Of a stretch of DNA of 64,000 nt, positions 3,628-62,528 are shown one piece after another (the first letter of the stretch is position 1; each line of letters opens with the position of its first letter). A program made the translations under genes and the position numbers. Below the pieces are notes generated by a model that did not search any database, had not been told where the DNA came from, and was given only the letters and a program-made list of their open reading frames with translations. The DNA is from a virus (taxonomy: Duplodnaviria; Caudoviricetes), in IMG/VR virus record IMGVR_UViG_3300026549_000032, positions 64,001 to 128,000 of that record; one strand, written 5' to 3'.

Positions 3628-4137
3628 ATGATTATACCTGCTGTGTGTTCCCTTGTTCTCTTGGGAACCTATACTATATGGTTCTGTGTGAAGTACGGTA
3701 TCCCTGAGAGTCTTTCTCAGAGTTATTACTACATTCCTTGGAAGCCACTATGGACTCTTGTTCTTATGGCGGCTGGATTTCTCGTTCTCCCCGAGTGCAT
3801 GGATAGAGCTTCCAATGCTCCCACACAGATTATTCCCTTCGTTGGTATCTTTGGTTTGCTCTTGGTGGCAGCCGCACCCAGGGTAAGGGATTATGAAAGA
3901 ACTACACACATAATAGGTGCCTCTGTGGCAGGGATATTCTCACAGTTATGGGTAATCTTATACGGAAAGCCATGGACCCTGTGTGTATGGTTTATCATAC
4001 TCGGTCTATTCTTGATCGGGCATATACAAAATAGAGAGTTAACATTTGGAGAAGTCTTGGATAAGTACAAGATAGTCTTCTGGGGAGAAGTCGCCTGTTT
4101 CTTCACTTTATATATAAATCTATTATGCTTAAAATAA
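3628..4137 (+). CDS. Multi-pass membrane protein
   Basis: 5-6 hydrophobic segments; GIPESLSQSYY motif. Confidence 0.7.
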   Translation: MIIPAVCSLVLLGTYTIWFCVKYGIPESLSQSYYYIPWKPLWTLVLMAAGFLVLPECMDRASNAPTQIIPFVGIFGLLLVAAAPRVRDYERTTHIIGASVAGIFSQLWVILYGKPWTLCVWFIILGLFLIGHIQNRELTFGEVLDKYKIVFWGEVACFFTLYINLLCLK

Positions 4138-5289: not shown

Positions 5290-5766
5290 TTAAGTATAAA
5301 ACTTACTCTCTTTAATTTCCTTCTCGATATCTGGACTGAGGAGTCCTCTCTGATATAGGATTAGGACAGACTCTTTTCCCTTCCCCTTAGCGGACAGGAC
5401 AGATTTGGGGTCTTTAAGGTTCGTGGTTACTCCCTCTGCCCTGAGAATAGACATGTTCCTATTGTAGGTAACACTATCATCACCCACTTTATAGAGAAGG
5501 TCAAAGGTGGTTGATTCTCGGATAGGGAACAGTTCGCTTATTCCTACTACCCTGCCAGTACTCTCTAGGAAATGTGTCTCGTGGGAATAGAAGAACCTAC
5601 TCTTGAAGTCTCGATCCTCCGACAGGTAGTCATAAAAGTCAGACCATCCAATCAAGATATCGTCCTCTGAGTCCCCAATAGTCCAAGGACATCCTTTCTC
5701 GTCTAAGTATTTGGTTAGGTCGTATCCTTTATCGGCCGTATCAGCTCTGACTAGTACTTTTAACAT
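5290..5766 (-). CDS. Hypothetical protein
   Basis: 158 aa ORF overlapping the end of the ATP-grasp gene. Confidence 0.65.
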   Translation of the reverse strand: MLKVLVRADTADKGYDLTKYLDEKGCPWTIGDSEDDILIGWSDFYDYLSEDRDFKSRFFYSHETHFLESTGRVVGISELFPIRESTTFDLLYKVGDDSVTYNRNMSILRAEGVTTNLKDPKSVLSAKGKGKESVLILYQRGLLSPDIEKEIKESKFYT

Positions 5767-6484
5767 AGTCCCAAGCCCTCTTTAACATGAGAGGCAACTT
5801 CTGATAATCACTAAAACCATAAAGTCCACAGCTAATGAATTCATGAGCCTCCATAACGACGGTCATAACTACACCCTCCTTATTCTTGATTACAGCAAAG
5901 TCCATGGTTAGGGCAGGACAGGTGAGACCAGACAACTTAATAGCCCTCTTCATCTTAAAAGGTTCAGGGAAGATTAGTGGATCTCCTGAATATGGCTGAC
6001 AGGCTATAATCTCACCTCCCCAGACGAAGCACCTCCACTCCGACAAGACATCTAAGGGAAGTCGGAATTGGTAGTTCTGATTAGGGTCAAGGGTAGTGAG
6101 GTCCGTGACTAAGCCATTTATGTCGTCCTTAAGGGAAACAGTAGACTTGACATAGAGAGGCATAGCCGCCTTAAACTTCTCTGGTAAGTCGCCCACTTTA
6201 CCAACCCAAGCGCCACCAGTCCAAGTATCGTTCTCTAGGAGGGGAGTTGGAACATTGATTGGCTTGATGGTTAGCCCAGAGAAGGCCTTAACAAACTCTA
6301 TTGTTCCAACAGGTATCCAATCTGGGTCAAGTATGTCTTTCTTGGCAAGGAGTTCCTCCAAAGACATATAGGTAATCGAGAAGGGTTCTTTGCGCCAGTT
6401 CCAGTATTCCTGGGCGCGTTCTAATTCAAAACAAAAATCTAATGTAACTCTTTCGTTAATCGTTTGAATAATAAATTTCATCAT
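5741..6484 (-). CDS. ATP-grasp domain protein (DUF4343-like)
   Basis: PVGTIEFV, YVKS, EWRCFV..G.I, MDFAV, VVMEAH..SCGLYG. Confidence 0.75.
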   Translation of the reverse strand: MMKFIIQTINERVTLDFCFELERAQEYWNWRKEPFSITYMSLEELLAKKDILDPDWIPVGTIEFVKAFSGLTIKPINVPTPLLENDTWTGGAWVGKVGDLPEKFKAAMPLYVKSTVSLKDDINGLVTDLTTLDPNQNYQFRLPLDVLSEWRCFVWGGEIIACQPYSGDPLIFPEPFKMKRAIKLSGLTCPALTMDFAVIKNKEGVVMTVVMEAHEFISCGLYGFSDYQKLPLMLKRAWDYVKSTSQS

Positions 6485-6587: not shown

Positions 6588-7514
6588 TCATTCACAAGAG
6601 CTGAAGAAAGGTAACACATGGTACCTGCAACCCAGGCAAGCGTAATAGGGCCAGCGGCTCCAGCCACCATTACTGTTCAGGCGCCAAACCGAATCAGCGC
6701 TTCGCATTGAGGATGAGTAGAACCAATAGCCCCAAGGTATGTTCTCTAAGCCAAGGGCAAACCTAGTTATATTAATCTCTGCCAAAGACAGGAATGCTTC
6801 TTTAAGCTCACCAGTGGCCGGTACGTAACCACCAAGCTTTCTAGCTTTTTCGAAAGCAGGGAATTCTAGATCAGGGTTCTTGAGTAGAATGTCTCTCTGA
6901 TTTTCCTCACCATTCATATCACGGTCAGCTTCTTCAAACTTCATAGTCTTGGCCGTATTAATGATTCGGGAGGTACAGAATACTACATCCTGAAACCATT
7001 CTGTTGATATTATATGTTTGCCAACCTTAATACCAATCACGCCCTTTCTTTCTCGGCCTTCCTGAACACTTACTATACTTTTATCCATTAAGAGTACCTC
7101 TAATGCAAACTGGGGAACAAGGGACTCCAAGGTCTTAGTGTAGAGTTGTTCTGTGGCTCGGGAAACAGTATCTTTAGTGATATGTAACTTCCTCGCAGCT
7201 ACCTGATTCAAGTCATCTTGTATCCACATTCTCGTTCCTGCTGGGATTGTGGCTTTGAAAATCTCTCCACCGTTGTCATTTCTTCTAGCTTCGACGGGAT
7301 TCAGGTAGGCATGTATAGCTCCACCATTCAAGGAAAACTTATATCCATATTCGTCAAAGTTGGGGTCCCCGGAGGGAGTTAAGTCTTTTCCTAACTTAAC
7401 AGGATAGCCTTGGTAGGGAGTTTTATATCCATCTGCGCCCTTCTTTAGGACTTTATAAACTGTAATATCTTCTTTTGTTACAAATCCGTTTTTATTTCCA
7501 ACGTATAAACACAT
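6588..7514 (-). CDS. Two-domain phage protein with C-terminal CLec/DUF1566-like domain (possible DGR target)
   Basis: YVPATGEL...WFYSSS....VW.L...GG.....V.PF pattern resembles the C-type-lectin fold tail. Confidence 0.5.
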   Translation of the reverse strand: MCLYVGNKNGFVTKEDITVYKVLKKGADGYKTPYQGYPVKLGKDLTPSGDPNFDEYGYKFSLNGGAIHAYLNPVEARRNDNGGEIFKATIPAGTRMWIQDDLNQVAARKLHITKDTVSRATEQLYTKTLESLVPQFALEVLLMDKSIVSVQEGRERKGVIGIKVGKHIISTEWFQDVVFCTSRIINTAKTMKFEEADRDMNGEENQRDILLKNPDLEFPAFEKARKLGGYVPATGELKEAFLSLAEINITRFALGLENIPWGYWFYSSSMRSADSVWRLNSNGGWSRWPYYACLGCRYHVLPFFSSCE

Positions 7515-7621: not shown

Positions 7622-9565
7622 TTATTTCAAGGATATGAGTTCAAAACCATTTATTCGTTTGTTCTCGCTATCTGACCAAACCTTAGTGGGTTTAATATCA
7701 AACCACTCTAGCATGTCATTTGCTTTTGCATTTTTATTAATTGAGAGCTCTCGGTATACTTGTCCCAAAATTGATTTAATGTCTTTTGAAGACAGTTTAT
7801 CTCCAGCATTAAAGATACTATAGACTTTTTCTTTAAGGGCATCAGATTTAGTATCTACCACCATTAGCTCTCGTAACTCATTGTCTCTAAACTCATGAGC
7901 TTTACAGGTAGTAGTTCCGAGATATCCATAATAATCTTTAAACCTAGGGTCTCTAATCTCAAACTCAAGTCTCCTAGCTATGTAATCATTTCCTGAAAAA
8001 GAGTCCCTAAACTTGCAATATAGTTCAAGTCGATTATTAAAAGTAGTGTAACTATTAAATTCTTCCAAGAACAACTCAATATACTCTTCATCTCTGTGAC
8101 GAAAATCTTGTTGTTCAACACTTAAACTTTCATCTTGTAAAGAGCTAATAGCACGGGTTACACTAATTCTATCCTGATAGTCCTCTTGAGCAACTTCCCA
8201 AGCTCGCTCATGAGCAATCTCAATAAAGTTATTATAGACAGGTCTATCTAACTTCTCAGAAATACTCATGAAGTTATCACTATATAAACTCAATCCTTTC
8301 TTTAAAAGCTTAGCGTAATATCCTTTATATAGTGCGAGGTTTACTCTTCTGCCATCATCGTCCATATTATCATAGTAATTTCTCAACAGAGTCTCAGTAT
8401 CTGCTTTTCTTTGAGCTTGAAGTTTTTCGAAATCCTCTCTGGTTATCTTATTACCTTCTCTAAGAACTTTATAGAAAATTACTATATTATTCTTGAATGG
8501 ATTCTCTCTATCTCTTTGTCTACCAGCTATTTGTGGGAGATCAAGGGAAATATCTACGGCTAAGCACTGTAGGTTAGGGTCAGCGAAGATATAAGTAGAT
8601 GCACACTTACTATAGAAATCGGCACCTATATAACAAGTGGAGGTACAGAAAGTAAACATCTTATTAGGTTCGTTTTCCATTGGAATCTGACCACGAGTAA
8701 AACCAACCTCCTTTAAGGCCTGGATGTTCTTCTCAGTTTCGCTACAAAGGATATTAACTTCTGATGGATCAAAGTTACCATTCCTTAAGATCCGAGTAAT
8801 ATCTTTGACAGAATTAAAATAGAAAACAGCCTCCTTGCTCTGACAAACCTTCCCCTGGTCGTTGACCGTAATAGGGAAATTTCCCTCTCGATAGTTCTCA
8901 ATAATTCTCATAGCTTCTTTAGGGAGAGATTTAACCAGACGTCTTTGGATGATCAAAGTATCAACACTCCCTGATTTACTCCAATCAAGCTGGTAATAGT
9001 CCAAACCAGCGAATTCAGGGATTCTGCTCAGGTACTTCTCAAGCATGGGAGTAGCACTGAGAAAGAGGACATTAGGACATTCGTGGATAGTCTCTAGGAA
9101 ATTATTCTCAACCCCTGCTTTAAAATAGGCGTCAACGAAAATTGACTGAAACTCATCCACGACAAAGATAAACTGATCCAAAAGATTACGAGACTTTAAG
9201 TAATCAACAACGTAGTGAGTAGAGTCATAGGTAACCATAAACTTAATAGCCTGACCAGTGGTTAAGCAGGATAGGATATGATTAGCCATAATATCACTCA
9301 GTGAGTCTACATCTTTGAAATCCTTTATTTCGTTCTTCAGGTAGATAATATTCTTTTCCTCTTGATGTTTTCTGGCTTTATTCTCCAAGAGCATCTTCCT
9401 TGGGGAACAAAGAACAACGTGTCTGTTATTAGTCAAACACAATTCGGTGTAACCACATCCGGTCACACCTTTATCAACAATACATTGCCCTTCAGGCAAT
9501 TCATAGTCTTTCCATTCGGAAATATATCTAGTTCCAAAGGGAACTGTCATTGGAATTATATTCAT
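7622..9565 (-). CDS. SF2 helicase-like / origin-binding-like protein, paralog A
   Basis: TGCGYT (degenerate Walker A), SPR, VTYDS, DEFQ, LSATP, YIGADF, QIAGRQR; basic C-terminal domain. Confidence 0.75.
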   Translation of the reverse strand: MNIIPMTVPFGTRYISEWKDYELPEGQCIVDKGVTGCGYTELCLTNNRHVVLCSPRKMLLENKARKHQEEKNIIYLKNEIKDFKDVDSLSDIMANHILSCLTTGQAIKFMVTYDSTHYVVDYLKSRNLLDQFIFVVDEFQSIFVDAYFKAGVENNFLETIHECPNVLFLSATPMLEKYLSRIPEFAGLDYYQLDWSKSGSVDTLIIQRRLVKSLPKEAMRIIENYREGNFPITVNDQGKVCQSKEAVFYFNSVKDITRILRNGNFDPSEVNILCSETEKNIQALKEVGFTRGQIPMENEPNKMFTFCTSTCYIGADFYSKCASTYIFADPNLQCLAVDISLDLPQIAGRQRDRENPFKNNIVIFYKVLREGNKITREDFEKLQAQRKADTETLLRNYYDNMDDDGRRVNLALYKGYYAKLLKKGLSLYSDNFMSISEKLDRPVYNNFIEIAHERAWEVAQEDYQDRISVTRAISSLQDESLSVEQQDFRHRDEEYIELFLEEFNSYTTFNNRLELYCKFRDSFSGNDYIARRLEFEIRDPRFKDYYGYLGTTTCKAHEFRDNELRELMVVDTKSDALKEKVYSIFNAGDKLSSKDIKSILGQVYRELSINKNAKANDMLEWFDIKPTKVWSDSENKRINGFELISLK

Positions 9566-9592
9566 TGTATAATTTTAATTTTCTTCTCCTTT

Positions 9593-9628
9593 CATGGGTA
9601 AAGGTTTCAAGTCGTCCCGAGCGCAAAA
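9593..9628 (-). promoter_or_regulatory. Putative promoter TTTGCG-N21-TA-N4-TG upstream of paralog A
   Basis: Reverse strand TTTGCGCTCGGGACGACTTGAAACCTTTACCCATG; same spacing as the 24772 (-) and 60881 (+) promoters. Confidence 0.55.
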
Positions 9629-9684
9629 TTTTCATTTCACGCTCGCGCGAAGAGGGATCTAAGCAGAGATATTCTTTTTCTTTG

Positions 9685-10035
9685 TTTGTCTAAAAATTTT
9701 CCCCACGAACGTATTCTCTCTATAATAGCATAGAAAAATGGAAAAATTAGACACTTGATTATCTTCTCCGCCTCGCCTAAGCTCGGCTCCGAAATACCAT
9801 CCTATATCCAACTGGGATGGCCGGAACGGCCCTTTCCTTTCGACATCCCGGGCGCGAGGACGAGTGATAACGAGGACGAAGTTGGCGTGGTGGGCGGGAT
9901 GTCGGTACGCTTGTCTTCTTTATTTCTCCTTACATCCGTCTTAGCCCTACAAAAATCAGACACTTCCATCTCTTGGTGTCATTTTTCTATATCACCTTAG
10001 TGAGGATTAAGAATTTTGTCAAAAACGGACACCAA
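9685..10035. other. Non-coding origin-like cassette A
   Basis: Inverted pairs TGTCTAA/TTAGACA (9687-9753) and TTGGTGTC/GACACCAA (9973-10035) flank a GC-rich core with GACATCCCG/CGGGATGTC and CGAGGACGA x2. Confidence 0.55.
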
Positions 10036-10059
10036 ATTCCACAAACGCCGACATTAACC

Positions 10060-10070
10060 CCTTACCTATG
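10060..10070 (+). promoter_or_regulatory. Putative promoter box CCTTACCTATG, 2 nt before ATG
   Basis: Recurring motif. Confidence 0.65.
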
Positions 10071-10072
10071 AT

Positions 10073-11137
10073 ATGAAAGAAGAAATGAACAATAAAAATC
10101 GATTAAAAATTATTTTTCGACCGTTTCTTCCTGAAACCAACTCCTCATCCTCACATTCCCTTGTTATTACACAAGGCACTCCCTACATTCTCCCAGGGAA
10201 TCCTCTCTGGGATGTTCCGACCGACCCATTGACCGCCAAACTCAAGATCGCCGGTTATGCATCATTCGGTCGTGGGGCTGGTGTGTATAACAGTGTCTAT
10301 TCAAAGATTCAGTATACCGCTGCTGCCTTGTGTTATTGGTCTAGGACAGAGAGAGCTTCGCATGAAGGTCTCCTCCGACTAGAAAGGATTATCAAGGATG
10401 TAACTGGTGTACCAGGGGTGACCTGGGAATGGATTCCTGATTATTATAAACGTCTCTTTACGGCCTATCAGGATCCTCGTGAGTTTATGAAGTACGGAGA
10501 GGAGGAAGAGTTTGGTTGGCCCGATGTGGACCATGAAGGAACGGATCGTTTTCCTGAAGTCTTAGAGTCAGATCAGACTATAGCCGACTTCATATTCTCC
10601 CCAACCTCAGTTCTCTATACTGGGGATGATGGTGGTTCGCCTTCTGTTCAATTCTTTGGAAGAACGGAACCTAAAGCTATTCTCCACGTAGAGATCCCTG
10701 AGCCCATCGGGCGTATAGATCTCCCTCTCTATAAATGGCCATGTAATGTGTTAAGTGAGATAGGAGACGTCTTGGGAAGAGGACCCTTGGATTCTGTGGT
10801 CTTTGAGAAAGGATCAACCCCTGGGGAATATATTGTCCGGGGGAAGGATGCCAGAGACCGCGAGCGTGTTCTCATAGATAATCCCTCGGGATCAGGTCCA
10901 AGAGTGGAACAAGATCAAGGGAGATTCTACTTTGCTGGGACAAACTATTTCAACCTCTTCAGGGATTTCCCGGCGGATGAGAAGCTGTACTGGTTTAGTC
11001 CGGCTCTCCCAGGTTATGTGGATGGGATTCGGAATGCTAATTATTCCCTCCCCGACGCTATGAAAGATCATCCCGACCTTTGGTTAGGTATCCCCTGGTC
11101 AGTAACAATCCTAGAACTTGGAGGAATCGAAGTATGA
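10073..11137 (+). CDS. Hypothetical protein with N-terminal ETNSSSSHS motif (radical SAM-associated)
   Basis: PETNSSSSHSLVI near N-terminus; ATGA overlap with radical SAM gene. Confidence 0.8.
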   Translation: MKEEMNNKNRLKIIFRPFLPETNSSSSHSLVITQGTPYILPGNPLWDVPTDPLTAKLKIAGYASFGRGAGVYNSVYSKIQYTAAALCYWSRTERASHEGLLRLERIIKDVTGVPGVTWEWIPDYYKRLFTAYQDPREFMKYGEEEEFGWPDVDHEGTDRFPEVLESDQTIADFIFSPTSVLYTGDDGGSPSVQFFGRTEPKAILHVEIPEPIGRIDLPLYKWPCNVLSEIGDVLGRGPLDSVVFEKGSTPGEYIVRGKDARDRERVLIDNPSGSGPRVEQDQGRFYFAGTNYFNLFRDFPADEKLYWFSPALPGYVDGIRNANYSLPDAMKDHPDLWLGIPWSVTILELGGIEV

Positions 11138-14784: not shown

Positions 14785-15494
14785 GAAGACCAAAATTGAC
14801 GAACACCATGATTGGTAATGTCTATCCCTTCTTCCTGAACAATCAGGCATTGAAAACGTACTATCTCTATCAGATAGTTAGTCCAGGGGCTCTTAGCGAC
14901 TATACGCCGCTACTCACACTCCAGAAGATTTGTGAGAGGACAGGAGACAAGGACTTCAGTGCCGTGGAGAGAAAGGATTGCTGCATGTACGGAGCAGACA
15001 TCATTGCCACTCTCCTGAAGAGTCGTAAAAACATAAAGGCAGAGGCAGTCAAGTATCTCTCCGAACAGATCTTGGCCCGTGGTGATGGCAGTTGGCAGCC
15101 CACTCTGTATGAGAATGATGTTGATTTCCCAATCTTCGAAATGGATTGGAACAACAGTGTAGCAAAGGCCCTGATCATTGGTCTGCGTGACGCCCTGAGA
15201 TGGCAGCAGTATCGCTTTGCCCCAGGAAATAAGATCGATCTTCTCTTGACTCCAACGAAGTTTGGTGTCTTTGAGATTAAGGGTGATAAAGAAGCTATCT
15301 GGTTGGAGCCCGTTGGTGTGTTCCACAACAATGATGTAGAGATGAAGAATCCCATCGCCGGAGTAAACATGCAGGAACTCGATTGGCCTAAGGGTAAGTA
15401 CGTTGGAGCTACTCGTGCAAGTGCTCTGAATCGTGTACTCCGCCAGACAGAGTGGAAATCATTTGATAACACAGAAATTAAGGAGGCCCGTTAA
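14781..15494 (+). CDS. Hypothetical protein
   Basis: 237 aa, ATGA overlap with infA. Confidence 0.75.
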
Positions 15495-15517
15495 AGGTCT
15501 CCTCTTTTTTATAGACT

Positions 15518-15979
15518 ATGAGTACATCAATAGAAAACATAATTAGAGGACTGGTCTATTGGTCAGAACTCTTAGAGAAACAGAAAAAGAAGATAACTTG
15601 GCTAGTAAGAATTGTCTGGCTAGTGGTTATTGCAGTCTTGGTCTGGTGTTGGGGATGGTATGGAGGAAGTCTCCTGAAGAAGGGGATAATAACAGTATCC
15701 CTTATGTTGGGCCTCATAGCGATCTGGGGATGGACTGTTTTATATGAAATGTTCGCCTCATATCTCCTTGTCTCCTACAACATATCTAAAGCAACCACCA
15801 CGGAAACAGAACTCCTCGCAGATAATATGATCTTAGAGGACATGAAAGGTGGTAGCAGAAATGAAGAAGAGATGCAGTTCCTCTGGATACAGCTCAGAAC
15901 GGAGCTTGGTCAATGGATTGGTAGAAAACTACTTTCAGCCAGAGGATTCACTCCACCAGAGGGAGGAGAAGAAAAATAA
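15518..15979 (+). CDS. Membrane protein (2 TM)
   Basis: Two long hydrophobic helices. Confidence 0.7.
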   Translation: MSTSIENIIRGLVYWSELLEKQKKKITWLVRIVWLVVIAVLVWCWGWYGGSLLKKGIITVSLMLGLIAIWGWTVLYEMFASYLLVSYNISKATTTETELLADNMILEDMKGGSRNEEEMQFLWIQLRTELGQWIGRKLLSARGFTPPEGGEEK

Positions 15980-47654: not shown

Positions 47655-49709
47655 TTATTTCTTCTTAGTAAAAGTTAATCCATTATCTCCGTTTACTTTG
47701 GCTCGAGCAACTTCAAACCATTTCTTGAGATCACTGGCTTTGGCTTTTATTGTTAAGCCAAAATCTTTGTAGACTTTTGCTAATCTATTTTTAGCCTCAG
47801 CATTAGTCAGTCTTTCTCCAACGGAGAACTCGGAATAAACTTTTTCTTTTAATCCTTCTTCGTCGATTACCTCTTCTGGTTCGAGCATCTGATTAAGCCT
47901 CGTAATATGATATCCGTTAGCCATAATCACATCTCTTCCCAAGCTCAGGTAGCCACGAATCTTACTATCCATCTGGTTTTCGACTATGTCTCTAACTTCT
48001 GGTGTCATGTTCGATTCACATAACCATCTCAGTTTATCTACTAACGTTGTCTGGCGTTCGATCGAAAGTAGTGCTACTTTAACGTCGAGTGCTGTTTGGC
48101 TCTCTTTCCCACCAAAAACCTCGTCAATTGTACTGAAGACTGTGAATCTATCCTTGTAGTCGATTTGCTGGATATCGAATGCTCTCTGTTCTGCGATGAG
48201 CACTAAATTGTTCATGACGGGAAGTTTATTTCTCCCTGCATGTTTATTAATGCCTACGTAGTCATCTTTGTAGTTTCTATCTCTACACCTATCCTCCAGC
48301 TGCTTAACAGCTACGTCTTTATTAGGGGCCGCCTGATAGTTCTCTAAGGCTGCTTCACTAAAACGAATTTTGATCTCGATCTTTCTTTCGTAATCTTCTC
48401 GAGTCATTTTTCGATTAGTTTCTTCATCCCTGAGAGTTTTGTAGTAGAACTCCGCTGAATTCTTCCATGGATTCTCTTCAAGTCTTTGTCTTCCGAGAAT
48501 CTGAGGAAGATCCAAGCTTATATCTACTGCCAAGCAGTCCACATTAGCGTCACTTAGAATAAATGTCCTAGCATTATCAGAATAGAAGTCAGCCCCAAGG
48601 TAGACCGTTCTTGTACAGATCGTAAACATCTTCCTAGGTTCATCCTTTAGAGGAACTTTTCCGATGATATACTTTTTCGAACCTAGGCCCTTGTTAAATT
48701 TGGCCTGATTATCTGGGGTATTACTACAAAGGATATTCACTTCCTCTGGTTGAATACCACACTTCTTTATGATCTGGATGATATTCTTTACGGAGTTAAC
48801 GAAGATCATAGCTTCTCTACTTTCTATGGTCCTGATCTGACCAGTATCTTTGTCTACCTCCCTGAAAGTTTCAAACTTACCTCTCCTATATTCTCTTACT
48901 ATTCTCTTAATAGGTTCATAGATAGAGTCGATTATTCTAACTTTCAAGTTTGGTTTCCTTGTTCTTCCCGGGTCAGCTGTCTCCCAATCTAATTCATAGT
49001 AAGGAAGATTAGCAAATTCTGGGATTCTCTGGAGGTATGTCCTCATCATCGGGGTAGCACTCAGGTAGCAAACCTTATCTATCCCTTGGAGGACGTTAAC
49101 GAACTCCAGTTCCGTATCACTTTTAAATCTACTGTCGACGAAAATTGATTGAAACTCGTCAACTATCACTTGGAATGAGTCTAATAAGCCAAACTCGATC
49201 AGTACATCTTTGAGTTGGCGAAAAGAGTCGTAGGTTACGATAATCTTTAAGGGTAAGCCTTTCCTAGCCATGTTGGCTTGATAGGTCCTTAGTTCTCTAC
49301 GAAGTTTTTCTCGGAAGGAATTGTCAGCTTTAGCTGTATCCTCAGCCAGTTTCCGGAGGAATTCTTCTACGTCGATTCCTTCATCTCTGGCCTTGTCTTC
49401 TTCACTTCGATCCATTCCAGTTTTATCAATATCTTTATCAATATTGAGGTCATAATCTCTAGAGTCGTTGACTACTCTATAGACCGTGTCCGGATGCTGT
49501 TCCCATTTATTCTGAATCAGCATGTTTCTCGGACTACATAGGACAACGTTATCCTGGTTTGTGAGACACCATTCGGTGAAGCCACACCCAGGGATCTGTT
49601 TGTCCATAATGTGGGGAATCCTAGGAAAGTTGTTGTAGAATTCTTTCCAGTCCCCAATGTACCTAATTCCAGGAGGTACAATTAATGTTGTTACGTTATT
49701 ATTTTTCAT
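47655..49709 (-). CDS. SF2 helicase-like / origin-binding-like protein, paralog B
   Basis: PGCGFT, SPR, VTYDS, DEFQSIFVD, LSATP, YLGADFYS, CLAVDISLDLPQILGRQR. Confidence 0.75.
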   Translation of the reverse strand: MKNNNVTTLIVPPGIRYIGDWKEFYNNFPRIPHIMDKQIPGCGFTEWCLTNQDNVVLCSPRNMLIQNKWEQHPDTVYRVVNDSRDYDLNIDKDIDKTGMDRSEEDKARDEGIDVEEFLRKLAEDTAKADNSFREKLRRELRTYQANMARKGLPLKIIVTYDSFRQLKDVLIEFGLLDSFQVIVDEFQSIFVDSRFKSDTELEFVNVLQGIDKVCYLSATPMMRTYLQRIPEFANLPYYELDWETADPGRTRKPNLKVRIIDSIYEPIKRIVREYRRGKFETFREVDKDTGQIRTIESREAMIFVNSVKNIIQIIKKCGIQPEEVNILCSNTPDNQAKFNKGLGSKKYIIGKVPLKDEPRKMFTICTRTVYLGADFYSDNARTFILSDANVDCLAVDISLDLPQILGRQRLEENPWKNSAEFYYKTLRDEETNRKMTREDYERKIEIKIRFSEAALENYQAAPNKDVAVKQLEDRCRDRNYKDDYVGINKHAGRNKLPVMNNLVLIAEQRAFDIQQIDYKDRFTVFSTIDEVFGGKESQTALDVKVALLSIERQTTLVDKLRWLCESNMTPEVRDIVENQMDSKIRGYLSLGRDVIMANGYHITRLNQMLEPEEVIDEEGLKEKVYSEFSVGERLTNAEAKNRLAKVYKDFGLTIKAKASDLKKWFEVARAKVNGDNGLTFTKKK

Positions 49710-49781
49710 ACTAAAAACGTTGATTTAACAAATGAAATAGACCCCATCGTTTTTAATTAAAACAATGAGATCTTTACTATC

Positions 49782-49792
49782 CATATATAAGG
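49782..49792 (-). promoter_or_regulatory. Putative promoter box CCTTATATATG
   Basis: Identical 11-mer also at 47187, 50172, 50712 (minus) and 62493 (plus). Confidence 0.65.
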
Positions 49793-49837
49793 GTTTCATG
49801 GCTTCTGAGACGGTGGGTCCAAAAAGAAAAGAAAGGG

Positions 49838-50068
49838 CTACTTAGTAGCAGCCTGCTTTCCTTCTTCTTCGTATTTATCTGTTTTGTTCCAAAGCCATAC
49901 AACGGCTGGACCACAGACAATCATCATCACTGTACCGAAAATTTTCTCGGTCTTACTCATTTCATCACTGAAATCTGCAAAACTAGCAACTTCAAAAAAT
50001 GTTACCAGTAATACGAGGACCATGCCTAAGAAGCATGCAATCCATTTTGCAATTGTTAACTTTTTCAT
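49838..50068 (-). CDS. Small membrane protein (2 TM)
   Basis: Two hydrophobic helices. Confidence 0.65.
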   Translation of the reverse strand: MKKLTIAKWIACFLGMVLVLLVTFFEVASFADFSDEMSKTEKIFGTVMMIVCGPAVVWLWNKTDKYEEEGKQAATK

Positions 50069-50204
50069 GTCTTTATTCTATTAGTTTGTTTCTCTTGCTT
50101 AATTAAAAATGACCGAACTACTTTCTCGCTGTTCGGTCTCTAGGTAGAGAATTAATTCATCTCTTTCTCTACATATATAAGGTTTTCGACCCTTTCCTAG
50201 ACGG

Positions 50205-62451: not shown

Positions 62452-62491
62452 GTGGGGAAACCGTCTGTGATGGATAGTTTTCCCACTTTTT
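62452..62491 (+). terminator. Intrinsic terminator
   Basis: GTGGGGAAAC...GTTTTCCCAC + TTTTT. Confidence 0.7.
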
Positions 62492-62528
62492 ACCTTATAT
62501 ATGAAATGAATAATAACACAACAAAAGT

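Follow-up and report, generated by a model that had tools for sequence, protein, structure and literature searches.

Our comparisons indicate that the 507-bp gap (9566-10072) between an SF2-like gene on the minus strand (7622-9565), designated paralog A, and a divergent gene on the plus strand (10073-11137) carries conserved, folded elements whose structure is tied to the SF2-like gene and is probably single-stranded, most likely RNA. Among the readings weighed below, the one that we place first, still tentatively, is that the gap is a long structured 5' leader or control region that is probably bound by the product of its own gene. The gap lies in a 64,000-nucleotide stretch (the window), which corresponds to bases 64001 to 128000 of a 218-kb viral record with a CheckV completeness of 60%. 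As close homologs of paralog A are carried by contigs of 350 to 430 kb from animal gut and rumen, the source phage is, to judge from these homologs, a gut or rumen megaphage.

Four close orthologs (loci L011, L012, L142 and L146; protein identity, 90 to 93%) were aligned together with their upstream DNA, and the third codon positions of the gene, 72 to 78% identical, were used as the neutral yardstick. Our alignments demonstrate that several elements of the gap (Table 1) are conserved well above this level; the proximal block at 9590-9669, for example, is 95 to 98% identical. One of these elements is a C-rich core, comprising a closing stem (P1), a small hairpin (P2) and a third region (P3). 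P1 differs in sequence among lineages (GACATCCCG/CGGGATGTC in A, GAGGTCCCG/CGGGACCTC in D and GATACCG/CGGTATC in L013). Both sides have changed in 4 of its 10 pairs, 96% of the cells are paired compared with 26 to 52% when the partner is slid, and the covariation score was reached by none of 500 shuffles. P2 occurs as GGCCTTCGGCC or GGCCGTTCCGGCC, which represents a compensatory insertion of one base pair, GGCC[G]TTC[C]GGCC. These pairwise compensatory changes, together with indels of 5, 8 and 13 nt between copies that are not multiples of three, rule out a small protein-coding gene in the core. To judge by eye, the G-rich tail that follows the core may be the core motif in inverted, degenerate form.

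A related architecture is found beyond the close orthologs. In seven lineages, a GCCCAMC motif lies within a 34- to 57-nt loop with a C content of 45 to 54%, and in all seven this loop is closed by a stem of 7 to 10 bp, with five different stem sequences. Distant members (approximately 50 to 60% protein identity) display other closing stems, such as ACTGGCCT/AGGCCAGT and GTCAGGC/GCCTGAC, and still more distant paralog sets have their own upstream blocks of approximately 100 nt in common. A narrow covariance model (R1) detected no copy in 50 loci of these more distant homologs, whose upstream blocks are separate subfamilies. The 78 matches to the core motif found in IMG/VR were all chance matches in GC-rich contigs according to nhmmer. 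Rfam 15 gave no match at the gathering score in the window or in nine related loci, with no hit in 9450-10200 below an E value of 1.5, and ARAGORN found no tRNA or tmRNA.

The core is linked to the SF2-like genes. Searches with nhmmer and the covariance model identified exactly two copies in the 218-kb genome, one upstream of paralog A and the other, at genome positions 163954-164092, upstream of paralog D, and further copies lie upstream of A and D orthologs in metagenomes. In two paralog lineages whose proteins are only approximately 35% identical, it keeps one orientation and precedes the gene by 240 to 530 nt. The record harbors four SF2-like paralogs, and one 305-kb contig harbors at least six. 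An earlier note on this stretch, made from the sequence alone, had pointed to the large gap upstream of the gene. Paralog D has a homologous core and paralog C has a gap in the 507- to 569-bp range that holds for A, C and D, whereas paralog B lacks a large noncoding cassette because a 76-residue hydrophobic open reading frame (ORF) at 49838-50068 on the minus strand, with its own CCTTATA motif, fills most of its apparent 628-bp gap. All other members that were fetched with upstream DNA have 450 to 1,350 bp of unannotated sequence upstream (450 to 660 bp outside cultured phages). The gaps in the cultured phages are AT-rich divergent junctions of 1,349 bp in D'Alembert and 930 bp in Phab24. In Psychrobacter phage D'Alembert the gap (L157:3590-4937) adjoins the annotated terminal repeat and contains a GATCGTGTCAACA box twice, at locus positions 3648 and 3996. 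Except at paralog B, the combination of gene and upstream noncoding cassette is a real conserved module, as the earlier note had supposed.

A second structured element, a hairpin in the putative 5' untranslated region (5' UTR), has a strand preference. Ten of its 12 pairs are Watson-Crick pairs, and on the gene-sense strand alone G.U pairs make up the remaining two, so that 12 of 12 positions are paired there. The loop is GAAA, GGAA, GUAA or GCAA in five orthologs, and the closing pair changes from U-A to U.G. In this and comparable hairpins the ratios of sense to antisense wobbles are 2:0 for A, 3:0 for paralog B, 3:1 for L153 and 3:0 for L155. Over all stems the ratio is 23:16, against 40:54 in shuffles, with one contrary hint from the core. 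The hairpin is best read as RNA.

The cassette is bracketed by a distal and a proximal box, and the minimum-energy structure of each strand pairs one with the other. Upstream of L151, L153, L155 and L156 (approximately 50% protein identity), where nothing else aligns, AGATCCCTCT-type boxes are retained, and they are arranged as one distal box plus an inverted pair beside the start. The D lineage has a box of its own, AGTTRGGAG, in the same layout, so that boxes differ between paralogs; local inverted box pairs are present in L151, L153, L155, L156 and the D lineage. The counterpart of the distal box in other lineages is found 0 to 25 nt after the T-run of the terminator of the upstream gene.

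The protein itself is a member of a large family. More than 5,000 clustered proteins are related to it at an E value of ≤0.001; the family is multicopy in gut and rumen megaphages and is also present in cultured Acinetobacter, Psychrobacter and Edwardsiella phages. A literature search found no paper on this family. The AlphaFold model of paralog A (predicted local distance difference test score [pLDDT], 80) displays an SF2 two-RecA core. Its best fold matches in Foldseek and VIA-align (Z scores of 17 to 19 over 300 to 320 residues) are DinG and DEAD/DEAH RNA helicases, and the best neighbors are mostly RNA helicases with bound RNA. Paralog A had no sequence match in Pfam (E ≤ 0.01), PHROGs, NCBIfam or the PDB sequences. 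Among the PADLOC defense models it had only a marginal match to a Cas3 fragment (E value, 0.0022), and paralogs B and D had none. Fifteen homologs share the motifs GCG-x-T-E, DEFQ, SAT and Q-x-x-G-R-Q-R without variation. The Walker A lysine is absent: motif I reads GCGYTE in paralog A, G-C-G-[YF]-T-E is invariant in the 15 homologs, and cultured-phage homologs have GVGGTT and GCGATH, with Thr or Ala in place of the lysine. In the window, the substitution is encoded at 9440-9480 (residues 32 to 41) and at 49570-49595, and its forms in the family include GCGYTE and GCGFTE. Four residues ahead of the GxGxT loop, all of these proteins, including those of the cultured phages, have a Lys, and this residue may represent the catalytic lysine in a new position. 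The C-terminal 160 residues are modeled confidently (pLDDT, 91.6), and the last 70 or so are weakly winged-helix-like (RFX DNA-binding domain; Z score of 6.0, 66 residues aligned, root mean square deviation of 2.9). Foldseek with this domain returned nothing at an E value of ≤0.001. A T5orf172/MUG113 (GIY-YIG-like) protein ends in the same C-terminal domain, as judged from sequence and predicted structure.

Taken together, these observations are consistent with the following mechanism. Transcription would start near the conserved GATTTTTG and the distal box, at approximately 9945. The RNA would fold into the C-rich, stem-closed core with P1, P2 and P3 and end in the GNAA-capped hairpin just before the start codon, and pairing of the distal with the proximal box would close the whole leader of approximately 330 to 380 nt. 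The gene product, with its RNA helicase-like fold and nucleic acid-binding C-terminal domain, might then bind the region and set its own expression. The family would consist of uncharacterized SF2-like, winged-helix proteins with a conserved control region, most of which is probably transcribed together with the gene. A structured leader is ranked first because the compensatory changes, the insertion in P2 and the sense-only wobbles favor a single strand, most likely RNA.

Several results weigh against this interpretation. The covariation in the A and D core comes from only about three independent lineages that carry the exact core, and the support for the core structure, while real, is therefore thin. 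One core pair in P1b, A.C versus G-C, would become G.U on the opposite strand, and the folding energy of the whole region is unexceptional (z scores of -1.4 and -2.0). No promoter for a long leader was identified: a sigma-70 scan gave no signal above shuffles, and the Bacteroidetes-type TAnnTTTG motif was not enriched upstream of genes (7 versus 4). At paralogs B and D, the 5'-UTR hairpin is directly preceded by a bipartite promoter-like motif, GACCGTCT-N16-CCTTATA, with the cassette beyond it, which would leave the core outside an mRNA that starts from that promoter; A has only a degenerate copy. L151, L153, L155 and L161 have a C-rich module and an inverted, G-rich, stem-closed copy across an AT-rich spacer, an arrangement that also suits an element acting at the level of DNA. 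Finally, the predicted C-terminal domain, common to a nuclease gene, looks like a DNA-binding winged helix. Because these points are real, a replication origin and a separate noncoding RNA (ncRNA) gene have to be kept in view, and both a leader RNA and a replication origin are retained here as readings of the conserved gap.

Table 1. Features of the gap upstream of paralog A, and the gene itself, in window coordinates
Feature	Position	Strand	Description
SF2-like gene, paralog A	7622-9565	minus	ORF of 647 aa; two-RecA core at about residues 1-370, helical middle, C-terminal winged-helix-like domain at about 577-644
5'-UTR hairpin	9618-9645	minus	12-bp stem, GNAA tetraloop; 53 to 80 nt upstream of start codon
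Proximal box	9650-9667	minus	Sense TCTGCTTAGATCCCTCTT; 15/18 inverted copy of distal box
AT-rich variable middle segment	9670-9754		Holds left inverted pair; 56 to 72% identical, approximately neutral rate; 82- to 87-nt indel in three orthologs
G-rich tail after core	9755-9783	minus	Sense ...GAGCCGAGCTTAGGCGAGGCGGAG; 76 to 83% identical; 9/11 complementary to CGAGGACGA repeat of core
Conserved C-rich structured core	9784-9912 (129 nt)	minus	91 to 96% identical; covariance-model match of 130.7 bits
P3 region	~9790-9818	minus	Invariant loop motif; part of core
P2, small GC hairpin	9819-9831	minus	Follows P1 on gene-sense strand
P1, 10-bp closing stem	9841-9850/9895-9904	minus	44-nt loop, 50% C, contains GCCCACCACGCC
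Distal box and purine-rich leader	9913-9950 (box, 9925-9942)	minus	Sense AAGACGGATGTAAGGAGA; 97 to 100% identical in four orthologs
Conserved GATTTTTG	9951-9958	minus	Just upstream of distal-box block
Right inverted pair TTGGTGTC/GACACCAA	9973-10035		47-nt loop with CTATATC; flank 88 to 99% identical where present

The earlier note had interpreted the gap as an origin module after the model of herpesvirus oriS, in which inverted boxes around an AT spacer are bound by the SF2 protein UL9. The repeats on which it built are all present: TGTCTAA/TTAGACA at 9687-9693/9747-9753 with a 53-nt spacer, TTGGTGTC/GACACCAA at 9973-9980/10028-10035 with arms that can be extended to 14 nt at 86% complementarity, CAGACAC at 9957-9963, and CGAGGACGA at both 9855 and 9871. 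The inverted repeat in the GC core, given as 9 bp, is in fact the 10-bp P1 stem (CGACATCCCG/CGGGATGTCG). Across the gap there are 10 inverted repeats of at least 7 bp versus 3.0 in dinucleotide shuffles (p of approximately 0.01), an excess that is due to the GC core; the two AT flanks alone gave p values of 0.10 to 0.28. GACAC/GTGTC occurs 4 times in the gap where 0.47 would be expected from the genome, for a motif chosen post hoc. Only 15 perfect inverted repeats of at least 8 bp with loops of 25 to 70 nt are present in the approximately 20.8 kb of noncoding DNA of the genome, and 5 of them belong to the gaps that precede paralogs A, C and D.

Conservation does not single out the GACAC boxes as the key elements. 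Only this genome has the left pair, TGTCTAA/TTAGACA, which has been lost in all four close orthologs. L011, L146 and L142 retain the right pair, and its whole 93-nt block is deleted in L012. A similar repeat-flanked CTCTATATAG is found at paralog D. L012, L142 and L146 do not preserve a flanking 24-nt direct repeat (79% identical). The divergent gene probably has the right pair in its promoter or 5' UTR. In L012, a clean 93-nt deletion relative to window positions 9964-10056 brings the divergent 354-amino-acid (aa) gene into direct contact with the cassette, so that the promoter of this gene would lie elsewhere or inside the cassette.

An initiator/origin function independent of these particular boxes is the best placed of the alternatives, and we nevertheless consider it unlikely. 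Each paralog would bind its own paralog-specific boxes through the winged helix and open or remodel DNA or an R-loop; the box pair beside the start would also be an autoregulatory operator, as in iteron plasmids, and a genome of 360 to 430 kb would have several origins. An R-loop would be favored by the strong C/G skew of the core. The combination of an SF2 core and a C-terminal winged-helix-like domain in one protein fits such a role, as do the fusion of the same domain to a T5orf172 nuclease, in the manner of site-specific DNA endonucleases, and the layout of one distal box plus an inverted pair at the start, with boxes that differ between paralogs. Inverted GC-rich modules around an AT-rich spacer are present in several lineages, two members lie right after DNA polymerase A, and long unannotated upstream DNA is found in all other fetched members except paralog B, including the 0.9- to 1.3-kb AT-rich divergent junctions of D'Alembert, where it abuts the terminal repeat, and Phab24. 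Part of the earlier proposal stands, namely, the module and the layout of an SF2 core with a C-terminal domain, but the GACAC boxes, the kinship to UL9 and the AT spacers do not. The conserved stems enclose C-rich GC loops rather than AT spacers, and the AT segment has diverged at a neutral pace, with large indels. UL9 matches in Foldseek (E value of approximately 5e-9) no better than hundreds of other SF2 proteins and does not rank among the top 50 by Z score, so that it is not the preferred fold match; many matches in a viral library carry the label "origin-binding," and they score on a par with the remaining SF2 helicases. Pfam gave no match to Herpes_ori_bp at an E value of ≤0.01, the family searches matched no replication initiator, and a profile search of the PDB sequences found no UL9. 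The Walker A lysine is absent and paralog B has no cassette. A search of 9566-10072 for iterons (at least three tandem direct repeats) yielded direct families of two copies only. GC skew, which the earlier note had proposed to examine for an inflection, merely follows gene orientation. A compensatory insertion in a hairpin of 4 to 5 bp and wobbles confined to the sense strand are more readily explained by a single strand than by binding sites in a duplex.

A wider proposal along these lines, which we regard as doubtful, is that megaphages of 360 to 430 kb have several dedicated origins, each a structured, C/G-skewed cassette read by its own SF2-like paralog. If so, the paralogs would be initiators analogous to UL9 with a displaced P-loop lysine and a winged helix that reads paralog-specific boxes, and the folded core would represent the single-stranded or R-loop form of the origin.

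It is similarly doubtful that the core, on either strand, is a gene for a small RNA of its own, which would act in trans or as a ribonucleoprotein with the SF2-like protein; under this reading, the altered ATP site of the latter points to a clamp or a scaffold, not to a motor. The core is a compact covarying unit with fast-evolving DNA on its flanks, and the A.C pair in P1b becomes G.U on the plus strand. On that strand, P2 followed by CTTTCCTTTC scores as terminator-like in this genome and in L011, with the U-rich tail kept in the D lineage and L013, and sequences resembling TTGACA-N16/17-TATAAT aim at the core in L011 and L012; these were recognized by eye and not reported by the scan. In L012, the cassette is the only DNA upstream of the divergent gene. 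However, the putative terminator would split the core, since P1 lies beyond it, and the promoter scan yielded no site for a separate RNA. The core keeps its orientation and distance relative to the SF2-like gene and not to any neighbor, and no Rfam family was matched.

An ordinary divergent promoter region, in which the GACAC boxes and short repeats are chance or routine promoter features, is improbable as an explanation of the gap. The short inverted repeats in the AT flanks do not exceed shuffles, the left pair is unconserved, the right block is dispensable in L012, and the CTATATC of the right pair resembles promoter-like motifs elsewhere in the phage. Such a region does not account for a 129-nt core that is under greater constraint than coding sequence, for the compensatory changes, for the copy at a paralog 90 kb away or for the long unannotated upstream DNA of all other fetched members.

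That the gene plus cassette, or the box-bracketed cassette alone, is a selfish unit moving within and between megaphage genomes, the second suggestion of the earlier note, is very improbable: the presence of four paralogs within 218 kb and of six or more on a 305-kb contig, inverted boxes that bracket the cassette, T5orf172 or "HNH" genes that often lie beside members (present in L160 and absent in L159) and the sharing of both P2 variants by the A and D lineages, a hint of exchange between copies, are outweighed by paralogs that are only approximately 35% identical and whose duplications are therefore old, by synteny around A that is kept in five relatives, by a core with only two copies, both upstream of paralogs, and no transposon hallmarks, by closing stems that vary around conserved interiors, the reverse of transposon ends, and by a search that found neither a target-site duplication nor an empty site.

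Some further observations concern the neighboring genes and the family. The motif GACCGTCT-N16-CCTTATA occurs genome-wide, 1 to 40 nt before many start codons (for example, at 49780-49800, 50170-50190 and 62480-62500 in the window), and a position so near the starts would imply very short or no leaders for one class of genes. In L011, the closest relative, a reverse transcriptase-like gene (RVT_1, weak match; L011:6694-7824) stands where the ATP-grasp genes (5290-6484 in the window) would be, approximately 0.7 kb beyond L011:5048-5980, the ortholog of gene 6588-7514. Nothing similar to the gap occurs in the rest of the window, which ruled out a template repeat of a diversity-generating retroelement for the neighboring variable-region-like gene. 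Relatives of the divergent 354-aa neighbor were sought in IMG/VR for a presence/absence comparison, and none were found. In other megaphages, A-like and D-like members lie directly downstream of a DNA polymerase A gene (L151/L152:1-55 and L161:1-664). The T5orf172 gene of this phage is outside the window, at genome positions 14915-15793 on the plus strand (L008:991-1866), right after paralog C. Such genes also directly follow several SF2-like orthologs (L153:3428-4294, L160:3219-4253 and L162:3213-4235), and among close D orthologs one is present in L160 and none in L159, in the manner of a homing endonuclease gene.

A conserved, folded noncoding partner and a shared nucleic acid-binding domain together provide a handle on the function of a family that has no annotation. 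This raises the possibility that the cassette is a new structured RNA motif, or that it contributes to how very large phage genomes control or start replication. As Phab24 and D'Alembert are cultured, a leader RNA and an origin can both be tested at the bench. A cryo-electron microscopy paper on UL9 (PMC12543377) and a survey of gut jumbo phages (PMC11662467) provide literature context only.

How does this module compare with known systems? In the 218-kb record it lacks the many dispersed copies, terminal inverted repeats and target-site duplications of transposons and miniature inverted-repeat transposable elements. It shares with UL9 and oriS/oriL of herpes simplex virus 1 (HSV-1) an SF2 two-RecA core, whose fold is generic to SF2 proteins, joined to a C-terminal nucleic acid-binding domain, as well as a gene located beside noncoding inverted repeats between divergent genes and several copies per genome; the UL9 structures 9hgi and 9hgj are among the Foldseek matches of paralog A (E value of approximately 5e-9). 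It differs from them in the missing Walker A lysine, in C-rich loops instead of an AT spacer, in the lack of conservation of the boxes first noticed and in the signs of single-strand structure. T5orf172/GIY-YIG homing endonuclease-like genes have the C-terminal 120 to 160 or so residues in common with the SF2-like proteins and often lie directly downstream of them, but they encode an N-terminal nuclease in place of the SF2-like core, and paralog A has no such neighbor. The DEAD/DEAH and DinG/XPD helicases are the best fold matches, and motifs II (DEFQ), III (SAT) and VI (QxxGRQR) are kept, whereas there is no match at the sequence level and Tyr or Phe (in cultured phages, Thr or Ala) takes the place of the motif I lysine.

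Two further systems are those in which a protein acts on the DNA or RNA in front of its own gene. In the iteron rep-ori systems of plasmids and phage P1, winged-helix initiators such as RepA repress their own promoter through an inverted repeat. Here, too, the gene of a winged-helix-like protein is preceded by specific, paralog-specific boxes with an inverted pair at the start, although there is one distal copy and an SF2-like core rather than a WH1-WH2 arrangement. Autoregulatory leaders and translational operators are represented by ribosomal protein leaders and by genes 32, regA and 43 of phage T4. The region upstream of paralog A is much longer (approximately 330 to 380 nt), modular and without an Rfam match, but like these leaders it would be a conserved, folded RNA directly upstream of a gene, one that could bind the product of that same gene.

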